Source: Herpetosiphonaceae bacterium (GTDB taxonomy: Bacteria; Chloroflexota; Chloroflexia; Chloroflexales; Herpetosiphonaceae). From it: 47,795 nt of DNA. The DNA lies in assembly GCA_034437415.1 (NCBI GenBank), contig DAOTUS010000173.1:1-47795 (forward strand), in the 5' to 3' direction. The translations under genes and the position numbers were made by a program. The notes beneath the pieces are model-generated. The model was not told the DNA's origin and searched no databases. It saw nothing but the letters and a program-made list of their open reading frames with translations. This document shows, piece by piece, positions 514 through 47,508 of this stretch (positions are counted from its first letter, which is position 1; the number at the start of each line of letters is the position of its first letter).

Positions 514-983
514 CTACTCAACGCTGCGGGGCCGATACTGGAGCGCCTCGGCCAGATGGGCTGGCTGGATGGTGGGGGCGCCCGCCAGGTCGGCGATCGT
601 GCGGGCCAGCTTGAGCACCCGGTGGTACGAGCGCGCCGAGAGCTGGAGCTGGCGCATCGCCGCCTTCATCAGGCTTTCGCCAGCGTTATCCAGGGCGCAC
701 CAGCGCCGCAGCACCGCCGGACCCATCTCGCTGTTGGTCAGCAGGCCCGTGGCGCCAAAGCGCTCGCGCTGGAGCTGGCGCGCCGCCGTGACCCGCTCGC
801 GGATCGCCTGCGATGGCTCGCCGACCCGCTCGCCCGCTAGCTTCTCGTAGTGGACGCGGGGCACCTCGACGTGAATATCAATTCGGTCAAGCAGCGGCCC
901 CGACAGCCGCTTCTGGTAGCGGCTGATCGCGGCTGGCGCACACGTGCAGGCCCGGCCTGGGTCGCCGTAGTGGCCGCACGGAC
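514..983 (-). pseudogene. comM: 3-prime (C-terminal) fragment of comM/yifB Mg-chelatase-like AAA+ protein, separated from its 5-prime part by the prophage
   Basis: The minus-strand frame is open from the junction (codon at 981..979) to the stop at 514. It reads PCGHYGDPGRACTCAPAAISRYQKRLSGPLLDRIDIHVEVPRVHYEKL...LQYRPRSVE, the ComM/YifB C-terminal part. It continues exactly where fragment 44785..45829 stops (..AMNPCP). Confidence 0.85.
977..983. repeat. attL core (CACGGAC), identical to 44778..44784
   Basis: This 7-bp sequence is shared by both comM/prophage junctions. Flanks are gccgCACGGACctgt on the left and agtcCACGGACaggg on the right. Confidence 0.75.
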
Positions 984-25863: not shown

Positions 25864-26208
25864 TTACAACCCCGTCGCCGGATTGTCGCTGGCATTGGCC
25901 TTGGCCTGCTGCGCCAGGCTGCCCACGTTGACAAACACGTTCGGGTTGACGCTCGACCGCGCCCACTTGATACCCAGCTCGAACATCCAGATATCCCAGG
26001 TCACCGTGGAATAGTCCGGGTCTTTGGCCCCGCGTGTCGATTTGATGAGGGCATACGGCCAGCCGTTGCCGCAGATAGTCCAGAGCTGCGGCGGCACCTG
26101 GATCTGCACGTCGCAGTGCCAGCTCAGCGCCATCTGGAAATGACGAAACAGGCGGCCCAGGCGCTTCTGAGCAGGGGTCTTCGTGGCGCTTTCGGTGATT
26201 GCGGTCAT
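25864..26208 (-). CDS. Hypothetical protein (Trp-rich, 114 aa)
   Basis: Second gene of the late operon. No recognisable motif. Confidence 0.45.
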   Translation of the reverse strand: MTAITESATKTPAQKRLGRLFRHFQMALSWHCDVQIQVPPQLWTICGNGWPYALIKSTRGAKDPDYSTVTWDIWMFELGIKWARSSVNPNVFVNVGSLAQQAKANASDNPATGL

Positions 26209-26702
26209 ACGGGTTTCTCCCAGTCCAGGCCGCCGAGCGACTGTTTGTACTCGTTGATTTTCCCTTGCAGCCGCTCCTCGCGGGCCTGCTCAATCACGGG
26301 GTAGGTGTCGTGCTCGCCGCGACGTCGGCCAAACCAGGGCGCCGGTGCAACAACCGGGATGTTGTGATCCTCGAGCTGAGCCATCACCACCCGTAGCCAG
26401 TTTTCGAGCGCCATCACGACCGAGGCCGTGCCCTGCGTGCGAAAACGAAAATCAGCGCCGCGCTCCTCAGAGCTCGCCAGCGCCTGGACGGCCAGCTGGT
26501 CCCGAAGCCTGGCCCGTTCCTCCAGCGCCGTGATCTTCTGGGCGCACAGGGCCGAGGCGCGCTCAACATGCTCCAGCGTGCGGTCGTAGGCGGCAAGGCG
26601 GCGGCGGGTGGCTGATGCTGCCCACAGGCCTGCGCCGCCTGCGCTGATAAAAAATAGCGCCCAGAACACCCCTAAAACAAACGGTTGTTCAAAATCAATC
26701 AT
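26205..26702 (-). CDS. N-terminally membrane-anchored coiled-coil protein, first gene of the late operon
   Basis: TM segment FVLGVFWALFFISAGGAGLWAA followed by a heptad-rich region. Confidence 0.5.
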   Translation of the reverse strand: MIDFEQPFVLGVFWALFFISAGGAGLWAASATRRRLAAYDRTLEHVERASALCAQKITALEERARLRDQLAVQALASSEERGADFRFRTQGTASVVMALENWLRVVMAQLEDHNIPVVAPAPWFGRRRGEHDTYPVIEQAREERLQGKINEYKQSLGGLDWEKPV

Positions 26703-26725
26703 TCGCTCTCAACATTCTAAAATGC

Positions 26726-26760
26726 ACAAGGCCGCGCTCCTGGTCGAAGCGCGGCCTTGT
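26726..26760 (-). terminator. Perfect 12-bp hairpin at the predicted 5-prime end of the late transcript, followed by GCAUUUUAG
   Basis: acaaggccgcgc / gcgcggccttgt with an 11-nt loop. It lies between the late promoter and the ATG at 26702. Confidence 0.5.
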
Positions 26761-26764
26761 GGAA

Positions 26765-26793
26765 AGTATAGAGTTTGACTATGGAAATGTCAA
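26765..26793 (-). promoter_or_regulatory. Late operon promoter TTGACA-17-TATACT
   Basis: Minus-strand -35 at 26793..26788 and -10 at 26770..26765. This is a near-consensus sigma-70 geometry. Confidence 0.6.
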
Positions 26794-26815
26794 GCTACGA
26801 TAGGCGATGGCTATA

Positions 26816-27157
26816 CATTAGCGCATTCGCGCTTTTTTTGGATAATATCGGCATTAGCGCATTAGCGCATTCTCTGAATAATGTTCGCCTTCACATTCGC
26901 GCATTAGCGCATTTTCTCAATGATAATCGTTCTCATTGTATTTGTGATATTTGATACACTGTTTGACAAAAAATCATAAAATACGATTTTACCTGAATAG
27001 AGTGCGATAAAGTGCTATCCATCATACTTTGTAACATTAGCGCATTAGCGCATTAGCTCTTAACATATACTACATGATGGAAATATTTTTAGACCCTAAA
27101 TCTATACGTCACATATATTCTTTAAGTCCGTATAGTTAATGCGCTAATGCGCTAATG
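26816..27157. repeat. Five clusters of tandem octamer GCGCATTA (about 12 units); clusters 4 and 5 form a 21-bp perfect inverted pair
   Basis: Clusters are at 26816..26832, 26851..26871, 26894..26913, 27035..27057 and, inverted, 27137..27157. The cattagcgcattagcgcatta at 27035..27055 is the reverse complement of 27137..27157. Confidence 0.85.
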
Positions 27158-27191
27158 TGGCGGTTCCCGACCAGACCCCCCAATGGGCAGC

Positions 27192-27222
27192 AAAAAGACC
27201 ACCTCCATCTGGGGTGGTCTTT
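27192..27222 (-). terminator. Rho-independent terminator after the PH-domain membrane protein gene
   Basis: Minus-strand aaagaccacc-ccagatgga-ggtggtcttttt. Confidence 0.7.
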
Positions 27223-27243
27223 GGTGTGACTAGTAGCTAGTAG

Positions 27244-28092
27244 CTACTCCAGTAGCTTGACCAAATCAACTACATAGTTCTTTTGTGATACGTTGTACTT
27301 GACTGAGCATGTCCATTCCGTACGGATCATTGCCCCAAAGCTATTCTGGGCATCAACATAGCCACGAATAGTATAGGTTGTGCCGCTCAGTTTAGGTTCA
27401 TAGGGTGGCATAAACGGAAAATCTGCCGACGATGGCGACTTGAGCAGGGCAGGGATCTGTTGCTTACACGTTGTATATGCCTTTACTTCATCTCCTACAT
27501 CAACCACATTCGCCGCTGGCGCTGCATTGTTGCCAGAAGAGCCAGGGCTGGAGGTACCTCTCCCGAATAATTGCCCACTCACTACATAATAGCTGAGTAG
27601 GGCCAGAGCCAAGGCGAGTGTGATGACATACAACGGCTTTGGAGATCCTGTTTTATTCTTCGCAGCCACCAGAACCGCAGGCACTGAGCCAGCCTCATCG
27701 GGTGTCTTGCCCTGGGATCGTGCGCGTAGATATTCTGCGAACGCCTCGCCCTTGCCAGTAAGCTTGGTGAATATCTCGGTTCCGTTGGTTGATTGCTGAG
27801 TGACCTGAAGCGTGCCTGTAGATCCTGTGAGGTAGAGTAGATGCTTAATATCATCAACCTGGAGTGTTTGCTGGGTAAGTTTACCATTGAGGGATCGGTG
27901 CAGGAATATCAGTCGTTCGTTGGTTAGGTAAAGAACACCACTGGCGCCGTTGTAGGCTGCCAGCTGGAACCGCTCCAGCCGCTCGGCGTCACCTAAGAGT
28001 TGCGCCAGGAGTGCTACCTCGGGCCGCCCGGCGTCGAGTCGACCACCACCCAGCCGGGTGATGTGCTGTTTGATTTCGTCAGGCGTAGCCAT
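27244..28092 (-). CDS. Bacterial PH-like domain / TM helix / extracytoplasmic domain protein (superinfection-exclusion or abortive-infection candidate)
   Basis: Start trimmed to MATPDEIKQH... LYLTNERLIFLHRS is bPH/GRAM-like, and the TM segment is LYVITLALALALLSYYVV. The C-terminal LKSPSSADFP...YVDAQNSFGAMIR motif is common in small exported phage or immunity proteins. The gene is low in G+C and sits next to the repressor. Confidence 0.55.
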   Translation of the reverse strand: MATPDEIKQHITRLGGGRLDAGRPEVALLAQLLGDAERLERFQLAAYNGASGVLYLTNERLIFLHRSLNGKLTQQTLQVDDIKHLLYLTGSTGTLQVTQQSTNGTEIFTKLTGKGEAFAEYLRARSQGKTPDEAGSVPAVLVAAKNKTGSPKPLYVITLALALALLSYYVVSGQLFGRGTSSPGSSGNNAAPAANVVDVGDEVKAYTTCKQQIPALLKSPSSADFPFMPPYEPKLSGTTYTIRGYVDAQNSFGAMIRTEWTCSVKYNVSQKNYVVDLVKLLE

Positions 28093-28293
28093 CAGCGCGG
28101 CTCCTCTCTCTAAAAGAATAGTGATATTTATTAACTTGTCACGAAATTGCAATCTGTGTCATTGGGGTAATATTGCATAGATCGTGCTGGTATACTAGAT
28201 TCAGGATCGAACATTTTTGCTACACAACGTGAGGGAAGATGATAGATTATAATGAGCATTTACGACTGGTCTGTGCTGGTATCGAGGCGACAA

Positions 28294-28707
28294 TCAAACT
28301 CGCTCGTTCCGGCGCCGGGCCAATAACTCCGCGTAAGTCAACACCGCAATCCGATCATCAGGACTCAACAGCGCCAGCGGCCCCAGGAACGTCTGAAGCT
28401 CAGGAACCGCCCCCAGGAGCGCTGTAACCCGCGTTGCCTCATCCCCGTTCTCTGCGCCGCCCTCAATGGCATAGCCGCATGACTCAATCACCCGACGCAA
28501 TGGAATGTCGAGCGCGATTGATATACCCGCTAAAGTTTGGAGGTCTGGCCGATACTCTGAGTTATTTTTGATCCGTGAAAGCGTCCCCTCGCTAATCGTA
28601 GAGTTGATCGCCAGATCGCGCATTTTCCAGCCGCGTTTATTAAGTTCTGATTCAATTAGCGCGTACAATCCAAGCATTGCTTTCACCTGTGTAACATTCA
28701 TTGTCAT
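28294..28707 (-). CDS. CI-like XRE-family HTH repressor (no S24 peptidase domain seen)
   Basis: WKMRDLAINSTISEGTLSRIKNN is an HTH_XRE motif. The gene is divergent from the RHH gene. Start taken as MTMNVTQ.. (aagga RBS), with an alternative at 28701. Confidence 0.7.
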   Translation of the reverse strand: MTMNVTQVKAMLGLYALIESELNKRGWKMRDLAINSTISEGTLSRIKNNSEYRPDLQTLAGISIALDIPLRRVIESCGYAIEGGAENGDEATRVTALLGAVPELQTFLGPLALLSPDDRIAVLTYAELLARRRNERV

Positions 28708-28744
28708 ACTATCATATCCTTTATATATTCTCAATAATATACTA

Positions 28745-28773
28745 TTGACTTTATATTTCGTCGGTGGTATACT
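28745..28773 (+). promoter_or_regulatory. Early rightward promoter TTGACT-17-TATACT
   Basis: -35 at 28745..28750 and -10 at 28768..28773. These are followed by the aaggagg RBS and the ATG at 28802. Confidence 0.65.
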
Positions 28774-28801
28774 TGCATCAATGAAATAAGGAGGCTAACC
28801 G

Positions 28802-29017
28802 ATGGCACGAAATCGCCCGCTCAAAGTTACCAAAGCCTTCGCCCTGGCTCCGCAAGATGTAGCAACCATTCGATCCATCGCAGACGAGCGGGCCACCAGT
28901 GACAGCGAAGCAGTCCGGTACATCATTGACCAGTTTCGTCTTTTTTTATCGCAGCAGCTTTCATCGGTGAAAGAATTGCACGAAGAGAAATCTACCACCG
29001 ACCTACAAGCCGCCTAG
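28802..29017 (+). CDS. Ribbon-helix-helix (CopG/Arc-like) protein in the Cro position
   Basis: KVTKAFALAPQDVATIRSIADERATSDSEAVRYIIDQF fits the beta-alpha-alpha RHH pattern. It is the first gene of the early operon. Confidence 0.6.
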   Translation: MARNRPLKVTKAFALAPQDVATIRSIADERATSDSEAVRYIIDQFRLFLSQQLSSVKELHEEKSTTDLQAA

Positions 29018-35919: not shown

Positions 35920-38454
35920 ATGACTGCTACCTATACCGAGTTTCTGACCTCAAAAATAACCCTGGTTGCGGCCCACGGGCTGACCGATATCGACCGCTCT
36001 GGCTTTCACCCGTCGCTCAAGCCCCATCAGGTCGATGCAACCGAATGGCTGCTGCAGCAGGGTCAGGCGCTGCTGGGCGCATCGTTTGGCCTAGGCAAGA
36101 CGCGAGTACAGTGCCAGGTCGCTCAGGTTATCCACCAGCGCACACAACAGCCCATCTTGGTCTGTGCGCCGCTGGGCGTGAAACATCAGTTTCAGCACGA
36201 AGACGGGCCTATCTTCGGCCAGGATTGGCAGTACGTGCGCACCGATGCCGAGGTACAGGCCGCCACGTCGCCCTACCTCATCACCAACTATGAGCGCGTC
36301 CGCGACGGCGGCATTGACCCGCGCAACCACACCTTCGCCGCCGTCAGCCTCGACGAGGGCAGCGTGCTGCGCAGCTTGGGCAGCAAGACCTACCAGACGT
36401 TTCAGGAGGTCTTCGCCACGGTCCCCTACCGCTTCGTCTGTACCGCCACACCCGCGCCGAACGCCTACCGCGAGCTGATTTACTACGCCCAGTTCTTAGG
36501 CGTGATGGACTCCGGCCAGGCGCTGACGCGCTGGTTCAAGCGCAACCCGCTCAAAGCAGGCGACCTGACCCTCCACGATCATCACGCTGAGGAGTTCTGG
36601 CTGTGGGTTGCCAGCTGGGCGCTATTTCTGTATTCGCCGGCGGACTTGGGCTATTCGGACGAAGAATACGACCTGCCGCCGATCAACATCCACTGGCACC
36701 GTCTGGAGGTCGACCACCACCGCGCCTGGGATAAAACAGACAACCGGGGCCAGCACAAGCTGCTGCTCGATGCCGCCAACAGCATCAGCGATGCCAGCCG
36801 CGAGAAGCGAGCCACACTCCCCGACCGCATCGCCAAGATGCGCGAGATTATCGACGATCACCCGGGCCAGCACTGGCTGCTGTGGCACCACCTCGAGGAT
36901 GAACGGCGAGCCATCGAGCATGCCATACCAGCCTCCATCAGCGTCTACGGCTCACAGGACCTCGATGAGCGCGAGCGGCGGATTATGGCGTTTGCCCACG
37001 GCGAAATCCCTATTCTAGCCACCAAGCCGGAGATAGCCGGAAGCGGCTGTAACTTTCAGCACCACTGCCATAGCAATATCTTTTTGGGCATTGACTACCG
37101 CTTTGAAGATTTTATTCAGGCCATCCATCGCACCTATCGCTTTCAGCAGCAGCACCCGGTCGATATCCACATCATCTACGCCGAGAGCGAAGACACCGTC
37201 GCCGGGATCCTGAAAGCCAAGTGGGAGCGCCACAACCAGCTGGTGCAGACGATGCGCGACCTGGTTGCCACCTACGGCCTGAGCCACGCGGCAATGCAGC
37301 GCAGCCTGAGCCGCCGGATTGGTATCGAGCGCCACGTTATTCGCGGCGAGCGCTTTACGGCCGTTAACAACGACTGCGTTGCCGAGCTGCCCCATCTCGC
37401 CGCCGACAGCGTTGGAATGGTGCTGACCTCAATTCCGTTCGGCAATCAGTACGAATATTCAACCCAGTATGAAGACTTCGGCTACAACGATGATGACGAG
37501 CGCTTTCTGACCCAGATGGATCACCTCATTCCTGAGCTGCTGCGGGTGCTGCAGCCGGGCCGTATCGCCGCGATCCACGTCAAGGACCGCATTCTCTATG
37601 GCCACCAGACCGACAGCCGTTTCCTTGAGCTCAACCCCTTCAGCGATAAGGTGGTTGAGCGCTTTCGCCGCCACGGCTTTCTGTTTCAATCGCGCCGCAC
37701 GATTATGACCGATGTGGTGCGCGAGAACAACCAAACCTACCGCCTTGGCTGGAGTGAGGTTTGCAAAGACAGTACCAAGATGGGCTGTGGCTCGCCCGAG
37801 TATCTGCTGACCTTTCGGAAGCCGCCGACGGAGACCACGACCGCCTACGCCGACAACCCGGTGGCCAGAGAGAAAGACAGCTACAGCCGGGGCCAGTGGC
37901 AAATCGACGCCGCCGCGCTCTGGCGGTCCAGCGGCAACCGGCTGCTGCAGCCGCACGAGGTCGCCGAGCTGAACCCCGGCGATGCGATGGCGCTGTGGGA
38001 ATCGGAGCAGGCCAACCTGCCCTACGACTACAACCGCCACGTCGCCATCTGCGAGACCGTCGCCGAACGCGGCAAGCTCCCCAGCAGTTTCATGATGTTT
38101 CCCCCGAAAGTGACCCGCCACGACGGCGAGCAGGTCTGGGACGACATCATCTACATCAAAACCCTCAACGCCGAGCAGGCGCGGCGCAATGTTGAGCAGC
38201 ACCTGTGCCCACTCCCGCTGGATATCGTGGAGCGGGCCATTCGCCTGTACTCAATGCCTGACGAGCTGGTGCTGGATCCCTTCGGCGGCCTGATGACCGT
38301 TCCCTACGCCGCGCTGAAGATGGGGCGCCACGCCTATGGCATCGAGCTGCACACACCCTACTTCACCGACGGCGTGCGCTACTGCCGTCAGGCTGAGCAG
38401 CAGGCCAACGCACCGACCTTGTTTGATCTCGTCCTGACTCAGGAGGCCGCCTGA
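35920..38454 (+). CDS. SNF2/DEAD-like helicase fused to a beta-class N4/N6 DNA methyltransferase
   Basis: Helicase motifs are GLGKT, LDEGS, CTATP and QAIHRTYR. The methyltransferase half has motif IV-like TSIPFGNQY followed by motif I LDPFGGLMTV. Confidence 0.75.
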   Translation: MTATYTEFLTSKITLVAAHGLTDIDRSGFHPSLKPHQVDATEWLLQQGQALLGASFGLGKTRVQCQVAQVIHQRTQQPILVCAPLGVKHQFQHEDGPIFGQDWQYVRTDAEVQAATSPYLITNYERVRDGGIDPRNHTFAAVSLDEGSVLRSLGSKTYQTFQEVFATVPYRFVCTATPAPNAYRELIYYAQFLGVMDSGQALTRWFKRNPLKAGDLTLHDHHAEEFWLWVASWALFLYSPADLGYSDEEYDLPPINIHWHRLEVDHHRAWDKTDNRGQHKLLLDAANSISDASREKRATLPDRIAKMREIIDDHPGQHWLLWHHLEDERRAIEHAIPASISVYGSQDLDERERRIMAFAHGEIPILATKPEIAGSGCNFQHHCHSNIFLGIDYRFEDFIQAIHRTYRFQQQHPVDIHIIYAESEDTVAGILKAKWERHNQLVQTMRDLVATYGLSHAAMQRSLSRRIGIERHVIRGERFTAVNNDCVAELPHLAADSVGMVLTSIPFGNQYEYSTQYEDFGYNDDDERFLTQMDHLIPELLRVLQPGRIAAIHVKDRILYGHQTDSRFLELNPFSDKVVERFRRHGFLFQSRRTIMTDVVRENNQTYRLGWSEVCKDSTKMGCGSPEYLLTFRKPPTETTTAYADNPVAREKDSYSRGQWQIDAAALWRSSGNRLLQPHEVAELNPGDAMALWESEQANLPYDYNRHVAICETVAERGKLPSSFMMFPPKVTRHDGEQVWDDIIYIKTLNAEQARRNVEQHLCPLPLDIVERAIRLYSMPDELVLDPFGGLMTVPYAALKMGRHAYGIELHTPYFTDGVRYCRQAEQQANAPTLFDLVLTQEAA

Positions 38455-39554
38455 TGCAACCGCTTCGCGTGATTGAAATCTGTGCCGGGATTGGAGGGAT
38501 CGCGTTGGGTTTTAAGATGGTCGGCGGCTTTGAGCACGTCGCCTTTGTAGAAAGAGACGACTATGCCTGCAAAATCCTCGAAAAACACTGGCCGCAGGTT
38601 CCTCAGTTTCGCGATGTCCGCAGTGTCAGCGCTTGGAATCTACCGCCGTGCGATGTCCTGGCGGGCGGCATACCCTGCCAGCCACACAGCTTGGCAGGAA
38701 AGCGTGGTGCAGGATCCGACGAACGGGATCTTTGGCCTGAGTTCTTCCGGCTCATTCGCGAAATTGGGCCGAGGTACGCAGTGGTGGAAAACGTCCCCGG
38801 ACTTCGTAGCTCCGATCGCGGATTGTTTTTTGGCCGCATTCTCGCAGACCTGGCCTCGGTCGGGTACGATGCGGAATGGATTAGCTTATCAGCTGGTGAA
38901 CTGGGAGCGCCGCATGAGCGCGAAAGGGTCTGGATTGTGGCCTACCCCACGAGCGTACAGTTTCAACGAGAGCCATGCGCCGGGTCTGACTGCGCTCGAC
39001 ATCCGGGTACGCGGGTTATACCCGGAAAAGAAACGCTATTGGCCGACACCGACCGTTCCGAATGGAGGACGATCACCGAAGGGAGGCATGTCAATGACAG
39101 GGATGACGCCGGACGGCAAGAAGCGCCAGGTCGATCTTCAACACGCGGTACGGATGGTCGAGCGGCAAATGTGGCCAACGCCGAGCGACGCGGTGTACGA
39201 CCGCAACAGCCGCCCGCTGAACGAGGTGGTGCTGCGCTTTGCAACGCCCCAGGCGCGGGACTTCCGATCAGGGCAAACGATCCGCTGGGAGGATATGGCA
39301 CGGAGCCGCAATCTGAACGATCAGATCGGCGGGCAGCTCAACCCCGATTGGGTATCTCTGCTGATGGGATTTCCAGCGAGTTGGACGGACTTAACGCCTG
39401 GGGCGATGGATGGGAGGACGGAACCCCGCGAACCGCCCGAGGCGGAGTCAATCGCGTCGCCCGCCTGACCTGCCTGGGAAACGCGGTCGTGCCACAGTGC
39501 GCCGCCGTGATTGGCGCGTACATCTGGCAGCACTATCAGGAAATACAGACATGA
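38454..39554 (+). CDS. DNA (cytosine-5)-methyltransferase; the frame-A ORF carries motifs I-VIII and X but an odd Arg/Gly-rich middle
   Basis: aggagg RBS and a TGATG overlap. Motifs are CAGIGG (I), GIPCQPHS (IV), ENVPG (VI), GAPHERERVWIV (VIII) and LGNAVVPQ (X). Confidence 0.75.
   Translation: MQPLRVIEICAGIGGIALGFKMVGGFEHVAFVERDDYACKILEKHWPQVPQFRDVRSVSAWNLPPCDVLAGGIPCQPHSLAGKRGAGSDERDLWPEFFRLIREIGPRYAVVENVPGLRSSDRGLFFGRILADLASVGYDAEWISLSAGELGAPHERERVWIVAYPTSVQFQREPCAGSDCARHPGTRVIPGKETLLADTDRSEWRTITEGRHVNDRDDAGRQEAPGRSSTRGTDGRAANVANAERRGVRPQQPPAERGGAALCNAPGAGLPIRANDPLGGYGTEPQSERSDRRAAQPRLGISADGISSELDGLNAWGDGWEDGTPRTARGGVNRVARLTCLGNAVVPQCAAVIGAYIWQHYQEIQT
38563..39468 (+). other. Alternate (+1) frame open through the C5-MTase gene, encoding WPTP repeats and LNPDWVSLLMGFPASWTD
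   Basis: Frame B reads TWPRSGTMRNGLAYQL..GSGLWPTPRA..YWPTPTVPNGGRSPKGG..MWPTPSDAV..ATPQARD..LNPDWVSLLMGFPASWTD. These motifs normally sit between motif VIII and motif X of phage C5-MTases. Confidence 0.5.
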
Positions 39555-40435
39555 AACACCTCCACATCCCGCCGATTATCCGCGCCGCCCTCGACAAAGG
39601 AGCGGCGCTTTCTATTTCCATCAGCGGCGGCAAAGATAGCCAGGCGCTGCTACTGGAGCTGGTTGCCGCCTACAAAGCCAACGGCTGGACTGGCCCTATC
39701 TTCGCTGTTCACGCGCACCTGGGCCGCGCCGAGTGGCCGCAGACGATGGCGCACTGCCAGGCGCTGTGTGATGAGGCCGGGGTTGCACTCTTCATCGTTG
39801 GCCGCACGGCCGGGGCTGACCTGGTCGACCGCTGGAAAGAGCGAATGCACACACTGGCCGGCACGGGCAAACCGTTCTGGAGCAGCGCGGCCCAGCGCTA
39901 CTGCACCAGCGATATGAAGCGCGGCCCGATTGACCAGTTGCTGCGTAAGTGCAGTCTGGTCATCAGCGCCGAGGGTGTGCGCGGCGATGAAAGTCCTAAC
40001 CGCGCCAAAAAGCCGACCGTCGCCATTCGTCCGCAGATCACGGCCCAGGGCCTGCGCGGCCTGACGATGGAGGAGGCGCTGAGCTATCGCTCATTCAAGC
40101 AGCGGCTGGCCCTGACGTGGTATCCGCTCCACGACTGGACCGAGCGCGACGTCTGGCAGGCCTGCGGCACCGACCTTGACGACCTACGGGAGCGGCAAGC
40201 GCTGTACCGCCTAGGGCACGAGGCTATCGCGCTCGACGGCTGGTCAGCCCACCCGGCCTACGTCTACGGCAACCAGCGGCTCTCCTGTGCGCTGTGCATC
40301 CTGGGCAGCCGCAACGACCTCCAGAACGGCGCGAAGTACAACCCGGCGCTCTACGCCGAGCTGGTGCAGATGGAGCGAGAAAGCGGCTTCACATTCCGCC
40401 AGGATCTGGCCCTGGCTGATTTGGAGGTGTTATGA
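39551..40435 (+). CDS. PAPS-reductase/DndC/IbrA-like PP-loop ATPase
   Basis: ATGA overlap with the upstream stop. PP-loop SISISGGKDSQAL, and a C-terminal CALCILG Cys pair. Confidence 0.7.
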   Translation: MKHLHIPPIIRAALDKGAALSISISGGKDSQALLLELVAAYKANGWTGPIFAVHAHLGRAEWPQTMAHCQALCDEAGVALFIVGRTAGADLVDRWKERMHTLAGTGKPFWSSAAQRYCTSDMKRGPIDQLLRKCSLVISAEGVRGDESPNRAKKPTVAIRPQITAQGLRGLTMEEALSYRSFKQRLALTWYPLHDWTERDVWQACGTDLDDLRERQALYRLGHEAIALDGWSAHPAYVYGNQRLSCALCILGSRNDLQNGAKYNPALYAELVQMERESGFTFRQDLALADLEVL

Positions 40436-40872
40436 CGTTCGACAACAGCGACGGGTTTTTCAACCTACTGCCCGACACAGCTCCAAAGCGCAAGTCCAAG
40501 CCATCCGATAACCGCTCGCTCGAGCGGGATATTCAAAAGGCTATTATCAAAGCCCTGCGGAAGCGGGATATTTTCGTCTGTCGGGTCAATGCCGGAAAAA
40601 TCAACATCAAAGACGGTGCTGACCCGACCGACAAAGGCCGCTACATCGTCGGGGCCACGGCGGGCCACAGCGACCTCTATGGCGTGCTGGCCCCACACGG
40701 TCGGGCGTGGTTCATCGAGGTGAAACGGCCCGGCGAAAAGCCCACAGTGCTGCAATCGCAATTCCTGAAAGCCCGCGCCGCCGAGGGCGCCCTGGTGGGA
40801 GTTGCAGACAGCGTGGTATCCGCGCTCGCGCTGTTTGGATTTGAGCCGACGCGATGGGAGGTTGGAAAATAA
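40432..40872 (+). CDS. VRR-NUC domain nuclease (PD-(D/E)xK)
   Basis: GHSDLYGVL ... WFIEVKRPGEKPTVLQSQF follows the VRR-NUC D...E.K..Q pattern. Confidence 0.7.
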   Translation: MTFDNSDGFFNLLPDTAPKRKSKPSDNRSLERDIQKAIIKALRKRDIFVCRVNAGKINIKDGADPTDKGRYIVGATAGHSDLYGVLAPHGRAWFIEVKRPGEKPTVLQSQFLKARAAEGALVGVADSVVSALALFGFEPTRWEVGK

Positions 40873-41747
40873 TGCTCTTCTACCCATCCAAAAATAACAA
40901 CGCGCTCAACCGCCGCCCATTCTCACCCGACCAGCTCACAGGCCGGGCGATGCTCAATCCACACTACCGCGTGCTGGTCGACCGCGACACACGAGCCATC
41001 TGTGACAGCGGCGCGTTTCAAGATGATGGCGTAGCGCGGCCGCGACTCCAGCCCTGGGCAGCCCTCCAGCGCCAGCTCACCTTTGAGCAGTGGCTGAGCT
41101 GGCAGGTCACGGGTACGCCAGACGACTGGCATTTCGAGAGCATCATCACCTATGACCAGATGTTCGGCGTCGACGAGGCAATGATCGACGGCAAGAAAGT
41201 CAAGACCCGTGGCACGATTGAGACCGCCCAGCCCGCCGTCGATGAGACCCTCCGGGCGGCCGCCTACTATGCCAGCCAGCGTGACAGGATCCAGGGCCGG
41301 GTCTGCTTTGCCGCCCAGGGGATAAACCCTGACCACTACCTCAATAGCTGTGTTGTGCCGATGCTTGATGTAATGCAGGACGGTGACTGGTTTGCCTTTG
41401 GCGGCTTCTGCATTATCGGCAAGGTGCCGAGCCTGAAGCCCTACTTCTATGAGACGGTCGAGCGCACTCTGCCGCTCCTCAAAAAGCGCGGCGTGACACG
41501 GGCGCATATCCTCGGCGTGTGCGTGGCCGATGCTATCCAGTTCGCCAGCGCCGCTGGCAGGCGCCACGGCATTGAGATGAGCACTGATAGCAGTTCTATC
41601 GAGGTCAACAGCGTGATGGGCCGCGTGTTTGATGGTGGCCGCTGGCAGCAGCGCTGGAGTAAGGCCGAGAAGTATATCGACTATCACCCGCGTGACTTGG
41701 CCCACGCCAATATTGAGACGTATTCACAGTGGAGCAGTGGATTATGA
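40872..41747 (+). CDS. DpdA-like (tRNA-guanine transglycosylase fold) DNA transglycosylase candidate
   Basis: TAATG overlap with the upstream stop. In TGT order and spacing it has CDSGAFQ, ITYDQM, FAAQG, FAFGGFCIIG and ILGV..STDSS. No C-terminal Zn-binding CxCxxC..H is present. Confidence 0.6.
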   Translation: MLFYPSKNNNALNRRPFSPDQLTGRAMLNPHYRVLVDRDTRAICDSGAFQDDGVARPRLQPWAALQRQLTFEQWLSWQVTGTPDDWHFESIITYDQMFGVDEAMIDGKKVKTRGTIETAQPAVDETLRAAAYYASQRDRIQGRVCFAAQGINPDHYLNSCVVPMLDVMQDGDWFAFGGFCIIGKVPSLKPYFYETVERTLPLLKKRGVTRAHILGVCVADAIQFASAAGRRHGIEMSTDSSSIEVNSVMGRVFDGGRWQQRWSKAEKYIDYHPRDLAHANIETYSQWSSGL

Positions 41748-42082
41748 CGCAACAACCAACTATCGGTGACCGCCTCAGGGCTTGGCGCTACACCTACAAT
41801 GTGCCCCCGCATAGCATCTGTGAGCGACTACTCATCTCGCATATGCAGTTGGAGTATATCGAGGATGACACGGCGGATATGGGGCCGGTTCTCATTGCTG
41901 ATATTGAGGAAATGATCTCCGCGCCAGCCAGGCCAACCCCAACTGAGGACGCCCTGCTGACCCTGCTGCGGACAGCGGCGACGGGCGGCTGGGAGATTGT
42001 TATCCGGCGCGGCTGCGTTGACGATGGGCCGCACATCGTGGCCCGGATTGAGGAGGAGCCGCGTGAACATCCTCAGCGCTGA
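41744..42082 (+). CDS. XRE-like HTH protein
   Basis: ATGA overlap with the upstream stop. IGDRLRAWRYTYNVPPHSICERLLISHMQLEYIE. Confidence 0.5.
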   Translation: MTQQPTIGDRLRAWRYTYNVPPHSICERLLISHMQLEYIEDDTADMGPVLIADIEEMISAPARPTPTEDALLTLLRTAATGGWEIVIRRGCVDDGPHIVARIEEEPREHPQR

Positions 42083-43113: not shown

Positions 43114-44802
43114 ATGCGAACAGCGCTCTATATTCGCTTCTCCAGCGAGAAACAAAAACAAGGGTCAAGCCTGCGAGACCAGTTGCAGCGCCTGCAGATG
43201 GATGCCCAGCTGGCCGGAGAGGAGGTGGTGGAAACATTCATCGACCAGGCGCAGTCAGGCACCAGCGTCAAGCACCGCAAAGAGTACCAGCGTCTGATGG
43301 AGTTCGTGCAGGCTGGCCACTGTGATATCGTTCGTCTGGAGAGCGTGGACCGAGGCCACCGCAACGACGGCGAGCGGCGCGACTTTGAGGCAGCCCTGAA
43401 ATCAGCCAAGGTCGAGATCATCTACTCCGGCGAGACCCGTGGCCAGGCGCCGGAGCAGCGGACGTTCAACCGCTCCATCAAGGGGATTGTGGCCGAGCTG
43501 GAGAGCGGGCAGATCAGCCAGCGAACCTATGACCGCCAGCTCTATCGGGCCAAACAGGGCAGACGACGCGGCGGCAGCGCCCCGTATGGCACGCTCATCG
43601 ATGGCCAGTGGTATCGACCAGACCCTGAGACCTATCCAACGCTCATCTGGATTTTAGAGCAGCGTGCTAGCGGGCACGGCTATCAGCGCATCACCAACAT
43701 GCTCAACCACGGCATCAGCCTCAACGGCGAGCCACCCGCTGTGCCAGTGCCGCCGGGGCATCTGGCGTGGCTGCGAAACCCCTGGATTGAACGCCAGGAT
43801 CCGTTGACCGGCGATATTGTCCAGCTCCCGCGCCCGTGCCCTCGCGCAAACTGGAATACCTCTACCGTGCGCAATCTCTGCCGCGATGCCATCAATGGTG
43901 TGTTGGCTGGTATTGTCCACTGGGGCCGTGAAAGTCGCAAATTCACCGAGGACCGCTATGGTCAGCCAAAGCAGGAGGTGGTGGTCGATACCGGCAAGGC
44001 GCTGGTACCGCCAGATCTGACGGCACGGGTCCGCGCCACCGAGCTGGCGCATCAGCACTTTATCGACCGCCCACTGCGGCCGCGCTCCACATTCCTCCTT
44101 CGTCTCCGCTGCGGTCTCTGTGGTGGCGCTATCTGTGGCGCAACCAGCTCAAACCATCGCCACGACAAGGTCTACCGCTATCGGACGTATATCTGCATCG
44201 GTCGCCAGCTCAACGCTGGATCCTGCACTCTGCCTGGTCTGCGAGTGCCGAAAATCGACCGGGCCATCGTCAAGGCGCTGATTGACTACACCGCCAGTAG
44301 TGCCTACCGGGAGATGCAAACCAGCCTCAATCAGTCGATTAGCCGCTACCGTGACGAGCTCACCGCAACCATCGCAACACTCACCGAAACCATCAGCGAC
44401 CTGGAGGCGGACCAGTCGCGGTCCCTTGATATTCTGCTGCGGACGGATCTCACCAGCACCGTGCTGGAGGCGCTCAATCATCGCCTGAACGGGGTTGCTG
44501 GGCGCATCGCGGACGCACGTCAACAGCGCGACACGGTGCAGGCTGGCATTGCTGCCCTGGACCAGCGAGCGCGGACCATTCGCGATATCCTTGGCGACAG
44601 CGCCATTCAGGCAGATGCGCTTGATCGTATTGAAGATGTCGACATTATCAAAGCACTCCAGCCCGCCGTGGCCGCCCTGGTCGCCGAGGCAACACTCCAT
44701 CAGATCGATAAACGAACGATGCAGGTCGCGCTCAAAATTCGGACATTAGACGGCATAATCCGTGGATTTGGTCAGTCCACGGACAGGGGTTCATCGCGCT
44801 GA
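43114..44802 (+). CDS. int: Large serine recombinase (integrase)
   Basis: The N-terminal resolvase domain ([11 protein letters not shown]) holds the catalytic Ser. A recombinase domain, a zinc ribbon (CGLCGG..C..YICIG...C) and a long coiled coil follow. The ORF crosses attR, so its last 5 codons are host DNA. Confidence 0.9.
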
Positions 44803-45829
44803 CCAGCACAAAGTTGGCCGGAAAGGCCAGTGTCCCGGCGGCGCGGCTGATCACCACAGTGTGGTCTTCGAGCGGCTGGCGCATCACCTGGAGTACCTGC
44901 TGGTTGAACTCGGGGATCTCATCGAGAAACAGCACTCCGCGGTGGGCCAGCGAGATCTCGCCAGGCTGCGGGTTGCGGCCGCCGCCAACCAGCCCGGCGT
45001 TGGAGATCGTGTGGTGGGGCGCTCGAAAGGGCCGGTGGCGGATCAGCGGCGTTCCCGGCGGCAGCAGGCCCTTGACCGAGTAGATCTTGGTTACCTCCAG
45101 GGCCTCGTCCAGCGAGAGCGGCGGCAGGATCGAGGGCATGCAGCGCGCCAGCAGGGTTTTGCCCGAGCCAGGCGGCCCGCTCATCAGCACGTTGTGTGCG
45201 CCAGCGGCGGCAACCTCGAGCGCCCGCTTGACATGCTCCTGGCCCTTCACCTCGGCCAGATCGACCGGGTAGCTCAGCTCCTCCAGCGGCGCCAGCACCA
45301 TCTCGTAGGGCGCAATGTAGCGGTCGCCGTTGAGATGGGCGGCCAGCTCCGCCAGCGAGCGAATTGGGATAACCGCGACGCCGTCGAGCAGGGCGGCCTC
45401 GGCGGCGTCGCAGTGGGGCACATAGACGGTCGCCATGCCCTCACGGCGGGCAATGCTGACCATCGGCAGGATCGCCTCGGTGTGGCGCAGGGTGCCATCA
45501 AGCGAGACCTCGCCGACAAACAGCGATTTGCTCACATCGGCGGCGATCTGTCCGGACGAGATCAAAACCCCGACTGCGATCGGCAGATCGTAGGCCGGGC
45601 CGGCCTTGCGCAGGTCCGCTGGAGCCATATTAACTGTCACCCTCTCGCCAGGAAAGATCCCCCCGCTGTTGCGAATCGCCGAGCGCACCCGCTCCTTGGC
45701 CTCCTGGACGGCGGCGTCGGGCAGGCCGACAATCGTAAACGACGGCAGCCCGCGGCTTATATCCACCTCCACCTCGACTAAAGCGCCTTCTAGCCCAATC
45801 ACCGCACAGCTCCACACCTTCGCCAGCAT
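44732..45829 (-). pseudogene. comM: 5-prime (N-terminal) fragment of comM/yifB, fused at 44784 to 17 phage-derived codons
   Basis: ggagga RBS, then [22 protein letters not shown].. with the Lon-like N-domain. AAA+ Walker A is GPPGSGKT and Walker B is LFLDE. The ORF ends ..SAMNPCP at the junction, then reads [15 protein letters not shown] before the stop. Confidence 0.85.
44778..44784. repeat. attR core (CACGGAC)
   Basis: Identical to 977..983, and it lies inside both the int ORF and the comM frame. Confidence 0.75.
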
Positions 45830-45903
45830 CAGCATATCCTCCACAATCGCAGATCATGCTTGCTATGATGCAGCGGGCGGGACGATTTTACGGGCATTTG
45901 AAT

Positions 45904-46163: not shown

Positions 46164-46670
46164 ATGCGTTGCCCCTACTGTGATGGTGAAAGCGCGGTTA
46201 TCGACACCCGCGATCTGGATAATGGCGAGTCGATTCGCCGCCGACGGCGTTGCAAGCAGTGCGACCGCCGTTTTACCACGTATGAGCGGGTTGAGTCGGT
46301 CAATGTGACTGTGGTAAAAAAGAATGGCGACCGCGAACCCTACGATCGGGAGAAGTTGCTGCGCGGGCTGCGGGTGGCTAGCTACAAGCGCCCCATCCCC
46401 GCTGAGGCAATCGAAAACCTCGTCACCGATGTCGAGGCAGCGCTGATGGCGTATGAGGCGGCCGAGGTCCCCAGCTCGGTGATTGGCGAGCTGGTGATGG
46501 CCCGCCTGCGTGAGCTTGATGAGGTCGCCTATATCCGCTTTGCCTCGGTCTATCGCTCGTTCACTGATTTAGGCAAACTCCGCGAGGCGGTGGAGGAGTT
46601 GATGGACTCGGAGCCACCCGCCCCAATGGCAAGGATTCAACACACGAATGACAACACAAACAATGGATGA
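46164..46670 (+). CDS. nrdR: Transcriptional repressor NrdR
   Basis: [17 protein letters not shown]...[20 protein letters not shown] zinc ribbon plus the ATP-cone sequence. Confidence 0.9.
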
Positions 46671-47508
46671 GACGAAAACAGTCGAGGTCGCCACGCCAGC
46701 CGCACGCACGCCGATTGCCTGGAAGCTGACCGCCCTGGTCGGCGTCATAACCGGCATCGCCTGGACGGTTATTCTCCTGTTCGCGCCCGATACGCTGAAG
46801 CTGATGGCCGGGATCGCCCCGGTTATTGGCGGGATCTACCTCGGCCGCAAGGTCAAGGATCGCGCGTTTACCCACGGCTTTTTGATGTCGCTGTTTGCGG
46901 TGATCGCGGCTATGGCAATTGTGGCTCCGATTGTCTTCACCGAGGTGATCAATCTGGCCGTTGACCAGCCGGCCGGAACCACGCCAACGGTCATGGGAAC
47001 GTTCCTCTCGATCTCGCTGATGATGCTGATCACGCTGGTGCCGTTTCCGATCTATGGCGTGATGCTCTCGGTGCGCAACCAGAAGCGCGCCCTGGAGTTT
47101 CGCAAAGAGGCCGATACCCGCGGCGGCCAGCTCCAGCGCCCAGGCCGGATCGTCAACCTTGACGATCTGCAGGCCCTGCCGCTGCCGAAGTTTGGCTCGT
47201 GGGTGGTGCAGCTGTTCAAGAGCAATGGCTTTGTCCTCGACGATTTTCAGTTCAACAAAGATGTTGTCGATCTGAAGGTACACCGCACCGAGCCTGCCGA
47301 GAAATGGCTGATTCGCTGCACGGTCGCCGACGCGATCAAGCCGGGCATGGCCCAGGAGCTGGTTCAGGATCTGCGCGACAGCGATGACTTCGTCAAGGGT
47401 GTGGTGGTTACGTCAACCAAGGTGCTTGACTCGACCCGCAAGTGGAGCAAAACCCGGCCCAATATCGAGGTGCTCGATGGCGAGACCCTGATGGAGATGC
47501 ACGGCTAG
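46648..47508 (+). CDS. Membrane-anchored restriction-endonuclease-like (Mrr_cat-type) protein
   Basis: Four N-terminal TM helices. The C-terminal part [18 protein letters not shown]...EKWLIRC..V..VVVTS resembles the Mrr/PD-(D/E)xK catalytic domain. It overlaps nrdR by 23 nt. Confidence 0.55.

Follow-up and report, generated by a model that had tools for sequence, protein, structure and literature searches.

A DpdA-like transglycosylase from a separate sequence subfamily in a Herpetosiphonaceae prophage, and its PP-loop ATPase and nuclease neighbours

DpdA is treated as the signature protein for 7-deazaguanine modification of DNA (PMC10516641), and insertion of preQ0 into DNA has been demonstrated for the DpdA of Enterobacteria phage 9g (PMC6884629). 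The bacterial enzyme (bDpdA) depends on DpdB, a ParB-like ATPase, and acts together with DpdC-K; in the Salmonella protein D95 is the general acid/base, D130 recognizes the base and D256 is the nucleophile, and the substitutions D95A and D256A abolish exchange (PMC10164549). Phages with DpdA and no preQ0 genes made up the largest class in the survey of Hutinet et al. 2019, with 76 members, among them Salmonella phage 7-11, which carries trace 2'-deoxy-7-amido-7-deazaguanosine (dADG) (PMC6884629). The sequence considered here is contig DAOTUS010000173.1 of a Herpetosiphonaceae bacterium (47,795 nucleotides, referred to as the window), which is occupied by a prophage of about 44 kb (about 865-44730). 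Three consecutive plus-strand genes of its early operon encode a 294-aa PP-loop ATPase (gene 1, 39551-40435), a 146-aa nuclease tentatively of the VRR-NUC / PD-(D/E)xK type (gene 2, 40432-40872) and a 291-aa DpdA-like protein (gene 3, 40872-41747), and a first-pass annotation had proposed that they form a coupled module for a new kind of DNA base exchange. The analysis instead makes it probable that gene 3 represents a previously unannotated DpdA subfamily, likely using preQ0 from the host, and that genes 1 and 2 are accessory genes independent of it. The novelty lies in a DpdA sequence subfamily outside bDpdA and DpdA1-4, not in a base-exchange system.

The subfamily is not visible to the usual libraries. 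The gene 3 protein has no relevant match in Pfam, PHROGs, NCBIfam, PADLOC or (by phmmer) the PDB sequences, and hmmsearch of the PDB sequences with gene 3 profiles of 32 and 91 sequences returned nothing relevant. A marginal match to RNA 2'-phosphotransferase (E 0.002, over 47 residues) was judged to be chance. It does belong to a genuine, conserved family, with 169 relatives in a set of 5.8 billion proteins, every one annotated as hypothetical, and 242 clusters (50% identity) in a set of 1.84 billion representatives. No match was found by tblastn in 50,697 GenBank phage records, and the family is thus absent from the sequenced phage isolates searched. At the BLAST/HMM level no similarity to a named DpdA subfamily (bDpdA, DpdA1-4) was found in those records or with the 9g DpdA and HVTV-1 DpdA4 sequences, the only link being one to 9g at the profile level, and literature searches found neither a "DpdA5" nor a paper describing the family. 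Since the curated models are blind to it, DpdA surveys based on those of Pfam, PHROGs, NCBIfam and PADLOC miss it.

The relationship emerges from the predicted fold. An AlphaFold (AF2) model of gene 3 built on 32 homologues (pLDDT 95.5, pTM 0.92) shows a TIM barrel that has no zinc subdomain. Its best Foldseek match in the PDB is tRNA-guanine transglycosylase (TGT) of T. maritima (2ash_B and 2ash_A, E 3e-9, TMq 0.64), with Salmonella DpdA third (7ui4, E 6e-8, TMq 0.59); the first generic TIM barrels follow at 1e-4, some four orders of magnitude behind TGT/DpdA. The top 16 BFVD matches include phage TGT/DpdA-like proteins from Vibrio phage nt-1, Cellulophaga phage phiST, a mycobacteriophage and a Sulfolobales virus, the remainder being unnamed proteins. 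At the profile level, HHalign with the larger family alignment (A3, 91 sequences) gave 88.9% and an E of 2.4e-6 against phage 9g DpdA, with the GG..G, H.FGV and S[TC]DSS motifs in register. The corresponding alignment to E. coli TGT is weak, with QG, LMGVG and DMFDC in register. DpdA2, DpdA3 and bDpdA were compared with gene 3 by fold only. A specific kinship with DpdA4/DUF6610 was considered and dropped, HHalign of the larger profile against HVTV-1 DpdA4 giving 0.3%, and phmmer with the 9g DpdA and HVTV-1 DpdA4 sequences found no match in the window. With the model, the Foldseek ranking and the 9g profile match all pointing the same way, the earlier call of a TGT/DpdA fold is borne out, and the assignment of gene 3 as an enzyme of this fold without the zinc subdomain holds.

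The conserved positions are those expected of such an enzyme. The CDSGAFQ, YDQM, AAQG, GGFCIIG, HILGV and STDSS motifs of gene 3 are conserved columns of its family, the near-invariant ones being D45-S-G-A-F, Y-D95, Q149-G150, G177-G178, H212..G215 and S-x-D239, and D45, D95 and D239 are kept in at least 90% of 91 members. In the AF2 model these columns map to the C-terminal strand ends of the predicted barrel. As the first-pass annotation had observed, they occur in TGT order and with similar spacing: they agree in both respects with D89 (TDSGGFQ), D143 (IFDEC), Q187 (GIIQG), G214 (AVGGLAVGE), M244 (LMGVG) and D264 (DMFDC) of E. coli Tgt, whose motifs that annotation had given correctly, residue for residue. 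All six catalytic or substrate motifs of TGT (PF01702), the family that also provides the best fold match, are represented. The predicted active-site residues of gene 3 are D45 (DSGAFQ), D95 (YDQM), Q149-G150, G177-G178, L214 (HILGV) and D239 (STDSS). Three of them, D45, D95 and D239, match in order and spacing the three Asp that do not vary in TGT and DpdA, which are D95, D130 and D256 in Salmonella DpdA (PMC10164549), and as in the Salmonella Montevideo enzyme (7UI4) a Phe stands four residues after the first Asp (F49 after D45, F99 after D95).

Among the described enzymes, gene 3 has several features in common with phage DpdA1, of which 9g is the example: both are phage-encoded proteins of about 300 aa with a TIM-barrel TGT fold and no zinc subdomain, and the DSGAF and S[TC]DSS motifs are common to the two. 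Unlike TGT, the gene 3 protein is some 85 residues shorter and stands in a context of DNA rather than tRNA modification. It ends at residue 291 with neither the C-terminal tRNA-binding region nor a CxCxxC...H zinc motif (C302, C304, C307 and H333 in E. coli Tgt), so that the missing zinc-binding C-terminus noted in the first-pass annotation is real. The bacterial Dpd system has a DpdA with a sequence identity of about 16% to gene 3 and a ParB-like partner for which no counterpart was seen here: no ParB domain was found among the 29 window proteins scanned with Pfam, a set covering the small open reading frames (ORFs) in part. At about 290 aa, gene 3 offers a compact enzyme for comparative enzymology.

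The gene neighbourhoods of the family are the strongest evidence for its connection to 7-deazaguanines. Family loci were drawn from genomes, viral contigs and metagenomes, giving 55 distinct loci after duplicate removal, many on contigs of less than 3 kb; every ORF up to 6 kb from the DpdA-like gene entered a clustering, and recurrent clusters were annotated with Pfam. The carriers are prophages or viral contigs of Chloroflexota (Herpetosiphonaceae, Ktedonobacteria, Chloroflexia) and of Nannocystis (Myxococcota), together with metagenomic contigs. QueD, QueE, QueC or YhhQ/Vut_1 is encoded within the 6-kb range at 22 of the 55 loci, directly adjoining the DpdA-like gene in those inspected; QueD, QueE or QueC occurs at 13 and YhhQ/Vut_1 at nine. 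By gene, QueD (PTPS, 2.6e-34) was found at 10 distinct loci, QueE (radical SAM, and by tblastn to 9g QueE) at seven, QueC (PF06508, 9e-60) at three and a YhhQ-type preQ0 transporter (Vut_1) at nine, plus locus L150. The gene order is DpdA-QueE-QueD-QueC in L033 and L034, QueE-QueD-DpdA in L037 and L049, DpdA-QueE-QueD in L054 and QueC-DpdA in L047. Members linked to YhhQ are the closest to the gene 3 protein (48-57% identity), those linked to Que genes being at 37-47%. These neighbours are the canonical 7-deazaguanine toolkit, not new chemistry, and phage DpdA1 is likewise found beside QueC, QueD and QueE. Unlike the 9g DpdA1, however, the gene 3 family occurs in temperate elements with hosts in Chloroflexota and Myxococcota, and its copy in the window is without pathway genes.

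Two distant members, P0180 and P0193 (912-944 aa), consist of a DpdA-like domain fused to ParB_N and HTH_ParB. By analogy, these fusions may be a Rosetta-stone echo of the bacterial pair of DpdA and the ParB-like ATPase DpdB, and they bear on the dependence of bacterial DpdA on DpdB. In a further set of fusions (P0173, P0177, P0196, P0197; 1000-1270 aa) the partner domains have no annotation. A 325-aa NCBI protein (P0036), 80% identical to the gene 3 protein over 60% of its length, is joined to the MCE-family domains PF11887 and PF02470 and is probably a mis-assembly or gene-call fusion. Among other neighbours, a SNF2-helicase/DNA-methylase fusion (neighbour cluster 7) is found no more than 6 kb from the DpdA-like gene at five of the 55 loci (the window, L012, L016, L060 and L061), and a DUF4031 gene directly upstream of it in L012 recurs in L021 and L060. 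Cluster c11, a 520-aa ORF downstream of the DpdA-like gene at five loci, was considered as a new tailoring enzyme and rejected; it has no Pfam match and no PP-loop, and was judged structural (baseplate-like).

In the window itself no QueC, QueD, QueE, QueF, FolE, YhhQ, TGT or QueA was detectable by phmmer with 22 reference proteins against the six-frame translation (E<=1), which agrees with the earlier statement that the prophage has no preQ0 synthesis genes. With neither a preQ0 pathway nor a YhhQ transporter in the prophage, the base would have to come from the queuosine pathway of the host, and the scavenging of host preQ0, one of two options raised at first, is the best reading. The prophage is a "DpdA-only" phage in the sense of Hutinet et al. 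2019, having DpdA without genes for preQ0 or G+ synthesis and a supply that depends on the host (PMC6884629). It differs from the phages of that survey in that their DpdAs fall in a DpdA1-type cluster, whereas gene 3 is of a separate sequence family in an integrated prophage. The class is already known. The tempting annotation as a "new base-exchange module" is unsupported and has been removed.

Homology with TGT and DpdA suggests a mechanism. In lytic growth, gene 3 would be expressed from the early operon, and after replication the enzyme would flip out the target guanine. D45 in DSGAFQ would be the general acid/base and D239 the nucleophile, with the base read by D95 and by the Q149-G150 and G177-G178 loops. 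By the double displacement of TGT/DpdA, some guanines of the replicated phage DNA could then be replaced by a free 7-deazaguanine, in all likelihood preQ0, provided by the queuosine pathway of the Herpetosiphonaceae host. The expected outcome would be a partial modification of the dPreQ0 type, or a derivative produced by the host, which could shield the phage DNA from restriction alongside the two methylases encoded upstream. Genes 1 and 2 would be independent accessory genes, packed closely into one early operon with those methylases. If the family does act in this way, the known range of deazaguanine modification of DNA would grow to include temperate phages of Chloroflexota and Myxococcota as well as soil and freshwater viromes.

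Several observations weigh against this reading. The gene 3 protein itself matches neither Pfam TGT nor any model for DpdA significantly, and among 91 relatives just two match TGT (best 4.6e-4) and two DUF6610 (best 1.1e-5), all weakly. The HHalign match to 9g DpdA covers the C-terminal half alone, and with a smaller alignment (A1) it falls to 14%, with 0.4% for E. coli TGT. The proposed equivalence of active-site residues is drawn from motif order and predicted strand ends rather than from a three-dimensional superposition. Of the 22 loci flanked on each side by 1.5 kb or more, only six have deazaguanine genes, and a branch at 28-35% identity has none nearby; therefore this function need not hold for every family member. 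Finally, the level and even the presence of modification would depend on the presumed supply of preQ0 by the host, to judge from the DpdA-only Mycobacterium phage Orion, which has unmodified DNA in a host without preQ0 (PMC6884629).

The example of Orion, whose DpdA leaves DNA unmodified, also bears on the possibility that gene 3 is silent in this host or exchanges another base, such as 7-carboxy-7-deazaguanine (CDG), 7-amido-7-deazaguanine (ADG) or preQ1. DpdA3 is thought to insert CDG, ADG or 7-deazaguanine (DG) (PMC10516641), and three loci of the gene 3 family, L037 (2183-4310), L049 and L054, have QueE and QueD beside the DpdA-like gene and no QueC visible on the short contigs available. 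If QueC is truly missing there, synthesis would stop at CDG, and these DpdAs might insert it in place of preQ0. QueC is present, on the other hand, in L033, L034 and L047, and the clade nearest to gene 3 is linked to YhhQ, of a preQ0/preQ1 transporter family. On balance, silence or a different base is unlikely for this prophage, if still worth keeping in view.

Gene 1 raises the separate question of a further modification. It belongs to the PAPS-reductase type of PP-loop enzymes, as proposed earlier, with Pfam matches to PF01507 (PAPS_reduct, 7e-15, 55.9 bits against a cut-off of 22.5) and to PP-loop PF01171 (9e-6), and a match to PHROG 424 (2e-30). The SGGKDS motif (S25, G27, K28, D29) is invariant across 34 homologues (alignment A2), and the family has exactly three invariant Cys, C118 (RYC118T) and the C246 and C249 of the C-terminal CxxC (SC246ALC249). 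Its AF2 model (pLDDT 94.6) is closest to APS/PAPS reductase, to CysD and to TtuA, a tRNA thiolase with an Fe-S cluster, the core fold being nearest to [4Fe-4S] APS reductase and TtuA; an Fe-S-dependent adenylating enzyme is a reasonable guess. With its SGGxDS motif, PF01507 domain, conserved Cys compatible with an Fe-S site and phage or defence-island context, gene 1 resembles DndC/BrxP/SspD/IbrA-type enzymes; unlike them, it is a stand-alone protein of 294 aa with a C-terminal domain of its own. It scores far below the cut-offs of the NCBIfam models for DndC, CysH and TilS (17.6 bits against 290.4 for the DndC equivalog TIGR03183), and none of the DndA/D/E, SspA/B/C, BREX or ParB/IbrB partners was seen among the window genes scanned. 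That gene 1 might be a cryptic QueC was rejected: there is no match to PF06508, three QueC sequences found nothing in the window by phmmer, and QueC structures rank 34th or lower among its fold matches.

The gene 1 family is large, with at least 975 relatives, and includes genes of Pseudomonas, Klebsiella, Streptomyces, Stenotrophomonas and Bacteroides phage isolates with no role assigned. They are annotated as "PAPS reductase" in Pseudomonas phage Dolphis, Klebsiella prophage ST11-OXA245phi3.2, Streptomyces phage Gilgamesh and Bacteroides phages, and literature searches turned up nothing on the function of such orphan phage PAPS reductases. In two phages inspected, the homologue lies in an early or nin-like region with no DpdA, adjoined in Dolphis by DNA methylases. 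A C5 methylase, at 11 of 79 viral loci, is the sole recurrent annotated neighbour. Gene 1 is accordingly a stand-alone PP-loop ATPase of the PAPS-reductase/DndC superfamily without a specific link to DpdA. It may have a nucleic-acid-modifying activity of its own, though one in which DpdA would have no part. The family, widespread in phages and frequently next to DNA methylases, could conceivably comprise self-sufficient enzymes installing an undescribed modification, for example by thiolation or amination via an adenylated intermediate, in which case the prophage would stack four DNA marks (N6/N4-methyl, C5-methyl, 7-deazaguanine and the PP-loop product). In a narrower version, gene 1 could act in this prophage on the base inserted by DpdA. 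Nothing specific supports a modification of its own here, and the idea is given a low probability.

That the three genes act together, the PP-loop enzyme tailoring the inserted base in DNA or supplying an undescribed one, has several points in its favour. They are adjacent and translationally coupled by the overlaps described in the first-pass annotation, the junctions being ATGA, ATGA and TAATG, across 39551-41747. PP-loop chemistry, adenylation followed by substitution with N or S, is the way in which QueC acts on 7-deazaguanines; the dADG of the DpdA-only Salmonella phage 7-11 is unexplained (PMC6884629); and a homologous PAPS-reductase gene lies 4 kb downstream of the DpdA-like gene in L006. 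The distribution of the genes argues otherwise. Across the 55 DpdA-family loci, PP-loop homologues accompany the DpdA-like gene in the window and its near-identical metagenomic copies (L001-L005), and in L006, but nowhere else, and this VRR-NUC gene does so in the window only. Conversely, none of the 79 viral loci with the PP-loop family has the gene 3 family, a 9g-type DpdA or this VRR-NUC within 8-kb flanks. The trio as such thus occurs in near-identical copies of this prophage only, and its closest relatives lack both partner genes: P0003 (70% identity to the gene 3 protein) has neither, P0016 (58%) has a Dam methylase after it and P0017 (57%) has YhhQ. The partners that are conserved in the family are QueC/D/E and YhhQ, not a PP-loop enzyme, and QueC comes low in the list of folds similar to gene 1, behind APS/PAPS reductase and TtuA.

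Nor are the overlaps particular to these genes. Overlaps of one or four bases occur at eight of 11 consecutive gene junctions between 32153 and 43099, with a 20-base overlap at one more, and gene 3 itself has an ATGA overlap with the next ORF; being operon-wide, they therefore indicate a shared operon, not a shared machine. The co-occurrence of PP-loop and DpdA-like genes, at two of the 55 loci, is nevertheless above expectation from the overall rarity of the former, and some functional link between the two may exist. Taken together, genes 1, 2 and 3 are not a coupled module, joint action of the three is very improbable, and a modification installed by the PP-loop/DpdA pair, the second of the options first raised, is unlikely. 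L006, the only other locus with a PAPS-reductase gene, also has an RNA-ligase-like gene. Its DpdA-like member (P0019, 8001-8873) has Asn in place of the Asp predicted as general acid/base (CNSTAFQ instead of DSGAFQ).

The least probable reading, that gene 3 is a minimal phage TGT reprogramming host or phage tRNA, can call on a tRNA TGT (2ash) as the best single PDB match and on the inability of fold alone to separate RNA from DNA substrates, but is opposed by the missing zinc subdomain and C-terminal region of tRNA TGTs, by a best sequence link to the 9g enzyme, which inserts preQ0 into DNA (PMC6884629), by an S[TC]DSS motif common to gene 3 and 9g DpdA (SCDSSSW) where TGT has DMFDC, and by methylase neighbourhoods and members fused to ParB DNA-binding domains.

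Gene 2 was first described as a structure-specific nuclease. It matches PHROG 93 ("endonuclease", 3e-16) and PHROG 5702 (Holliday junction resolvase, 5e-10), and its match to Pfam VRR_NUC PF08774 is weak (2.8e-4) and, at 21.4 bits, under the cut-off of 23.8. It is probably a phage nuclease of the recombination or resolvase type.

The two DNA methylases reported upstream of gene 1 were both confirmed by Pfam. The first is a fusion of a SNF2 helicase and an N6-N4 DNA methyltransferase (about 35920-38454, plus strand; N6_N4_Mtase 8.5e-18, SNF2-rel_dom 2e-6, Helicase_C 7e-4), and the second a C5 cytosine DNA methyltransferase (38454-39554, plus strand; PF00145, 1e-44), which is an independent DNA-modification gene of the same operon. 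The ORF overlapping the gene 3 stop codon encodes a 112-aa protein (41744-42082, plus strand) with neither a Pfam nor a PHROG match; PADLOC HTH_VI gives a weak helix-turn-helix (HTH) signal (0.014), and tblastn matches are confined to the near-identical contigs L001-L005.

The early operon is on the plus strand of the prophage, opposite the minus-strand genes for terminase, tail and baseplate. A gene of the comM/Mg-chelatase family is split by the prophage, with a Mg_chelatase_C piece at the left end (514-864, minus strand) and a piece comprising ChlI and the N-terminal part of Mg_chelatase at the right (44732-45844, minus strand), where it adjoins a large serine recombinase, the integrase (43114-44802, plus strand). 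The attachment site is therefore within comM. A repressor-like HTH protein is encoded at 28294-28734, adjoining a 302-aa ORF without Pfam match (27244-28152, minus strand), around which the GC content dips from about 0.62 to 0.49-0.53 (26000-29000); at this position, beside the lysogeny switch, the ORF may represent a moron or defence cargo. In the host flank, NrdR shares a 90%-identity cluster with a protein from a Herpetosiphonaceae metagenome-assembled genome. Beside nrdR, the product of a gene at 46648-47508 (plus strand) is a multi-pass membrane protein that carries a restriction-endonuclease domain, Mrr_cat (2e-6), at its C-terminus.

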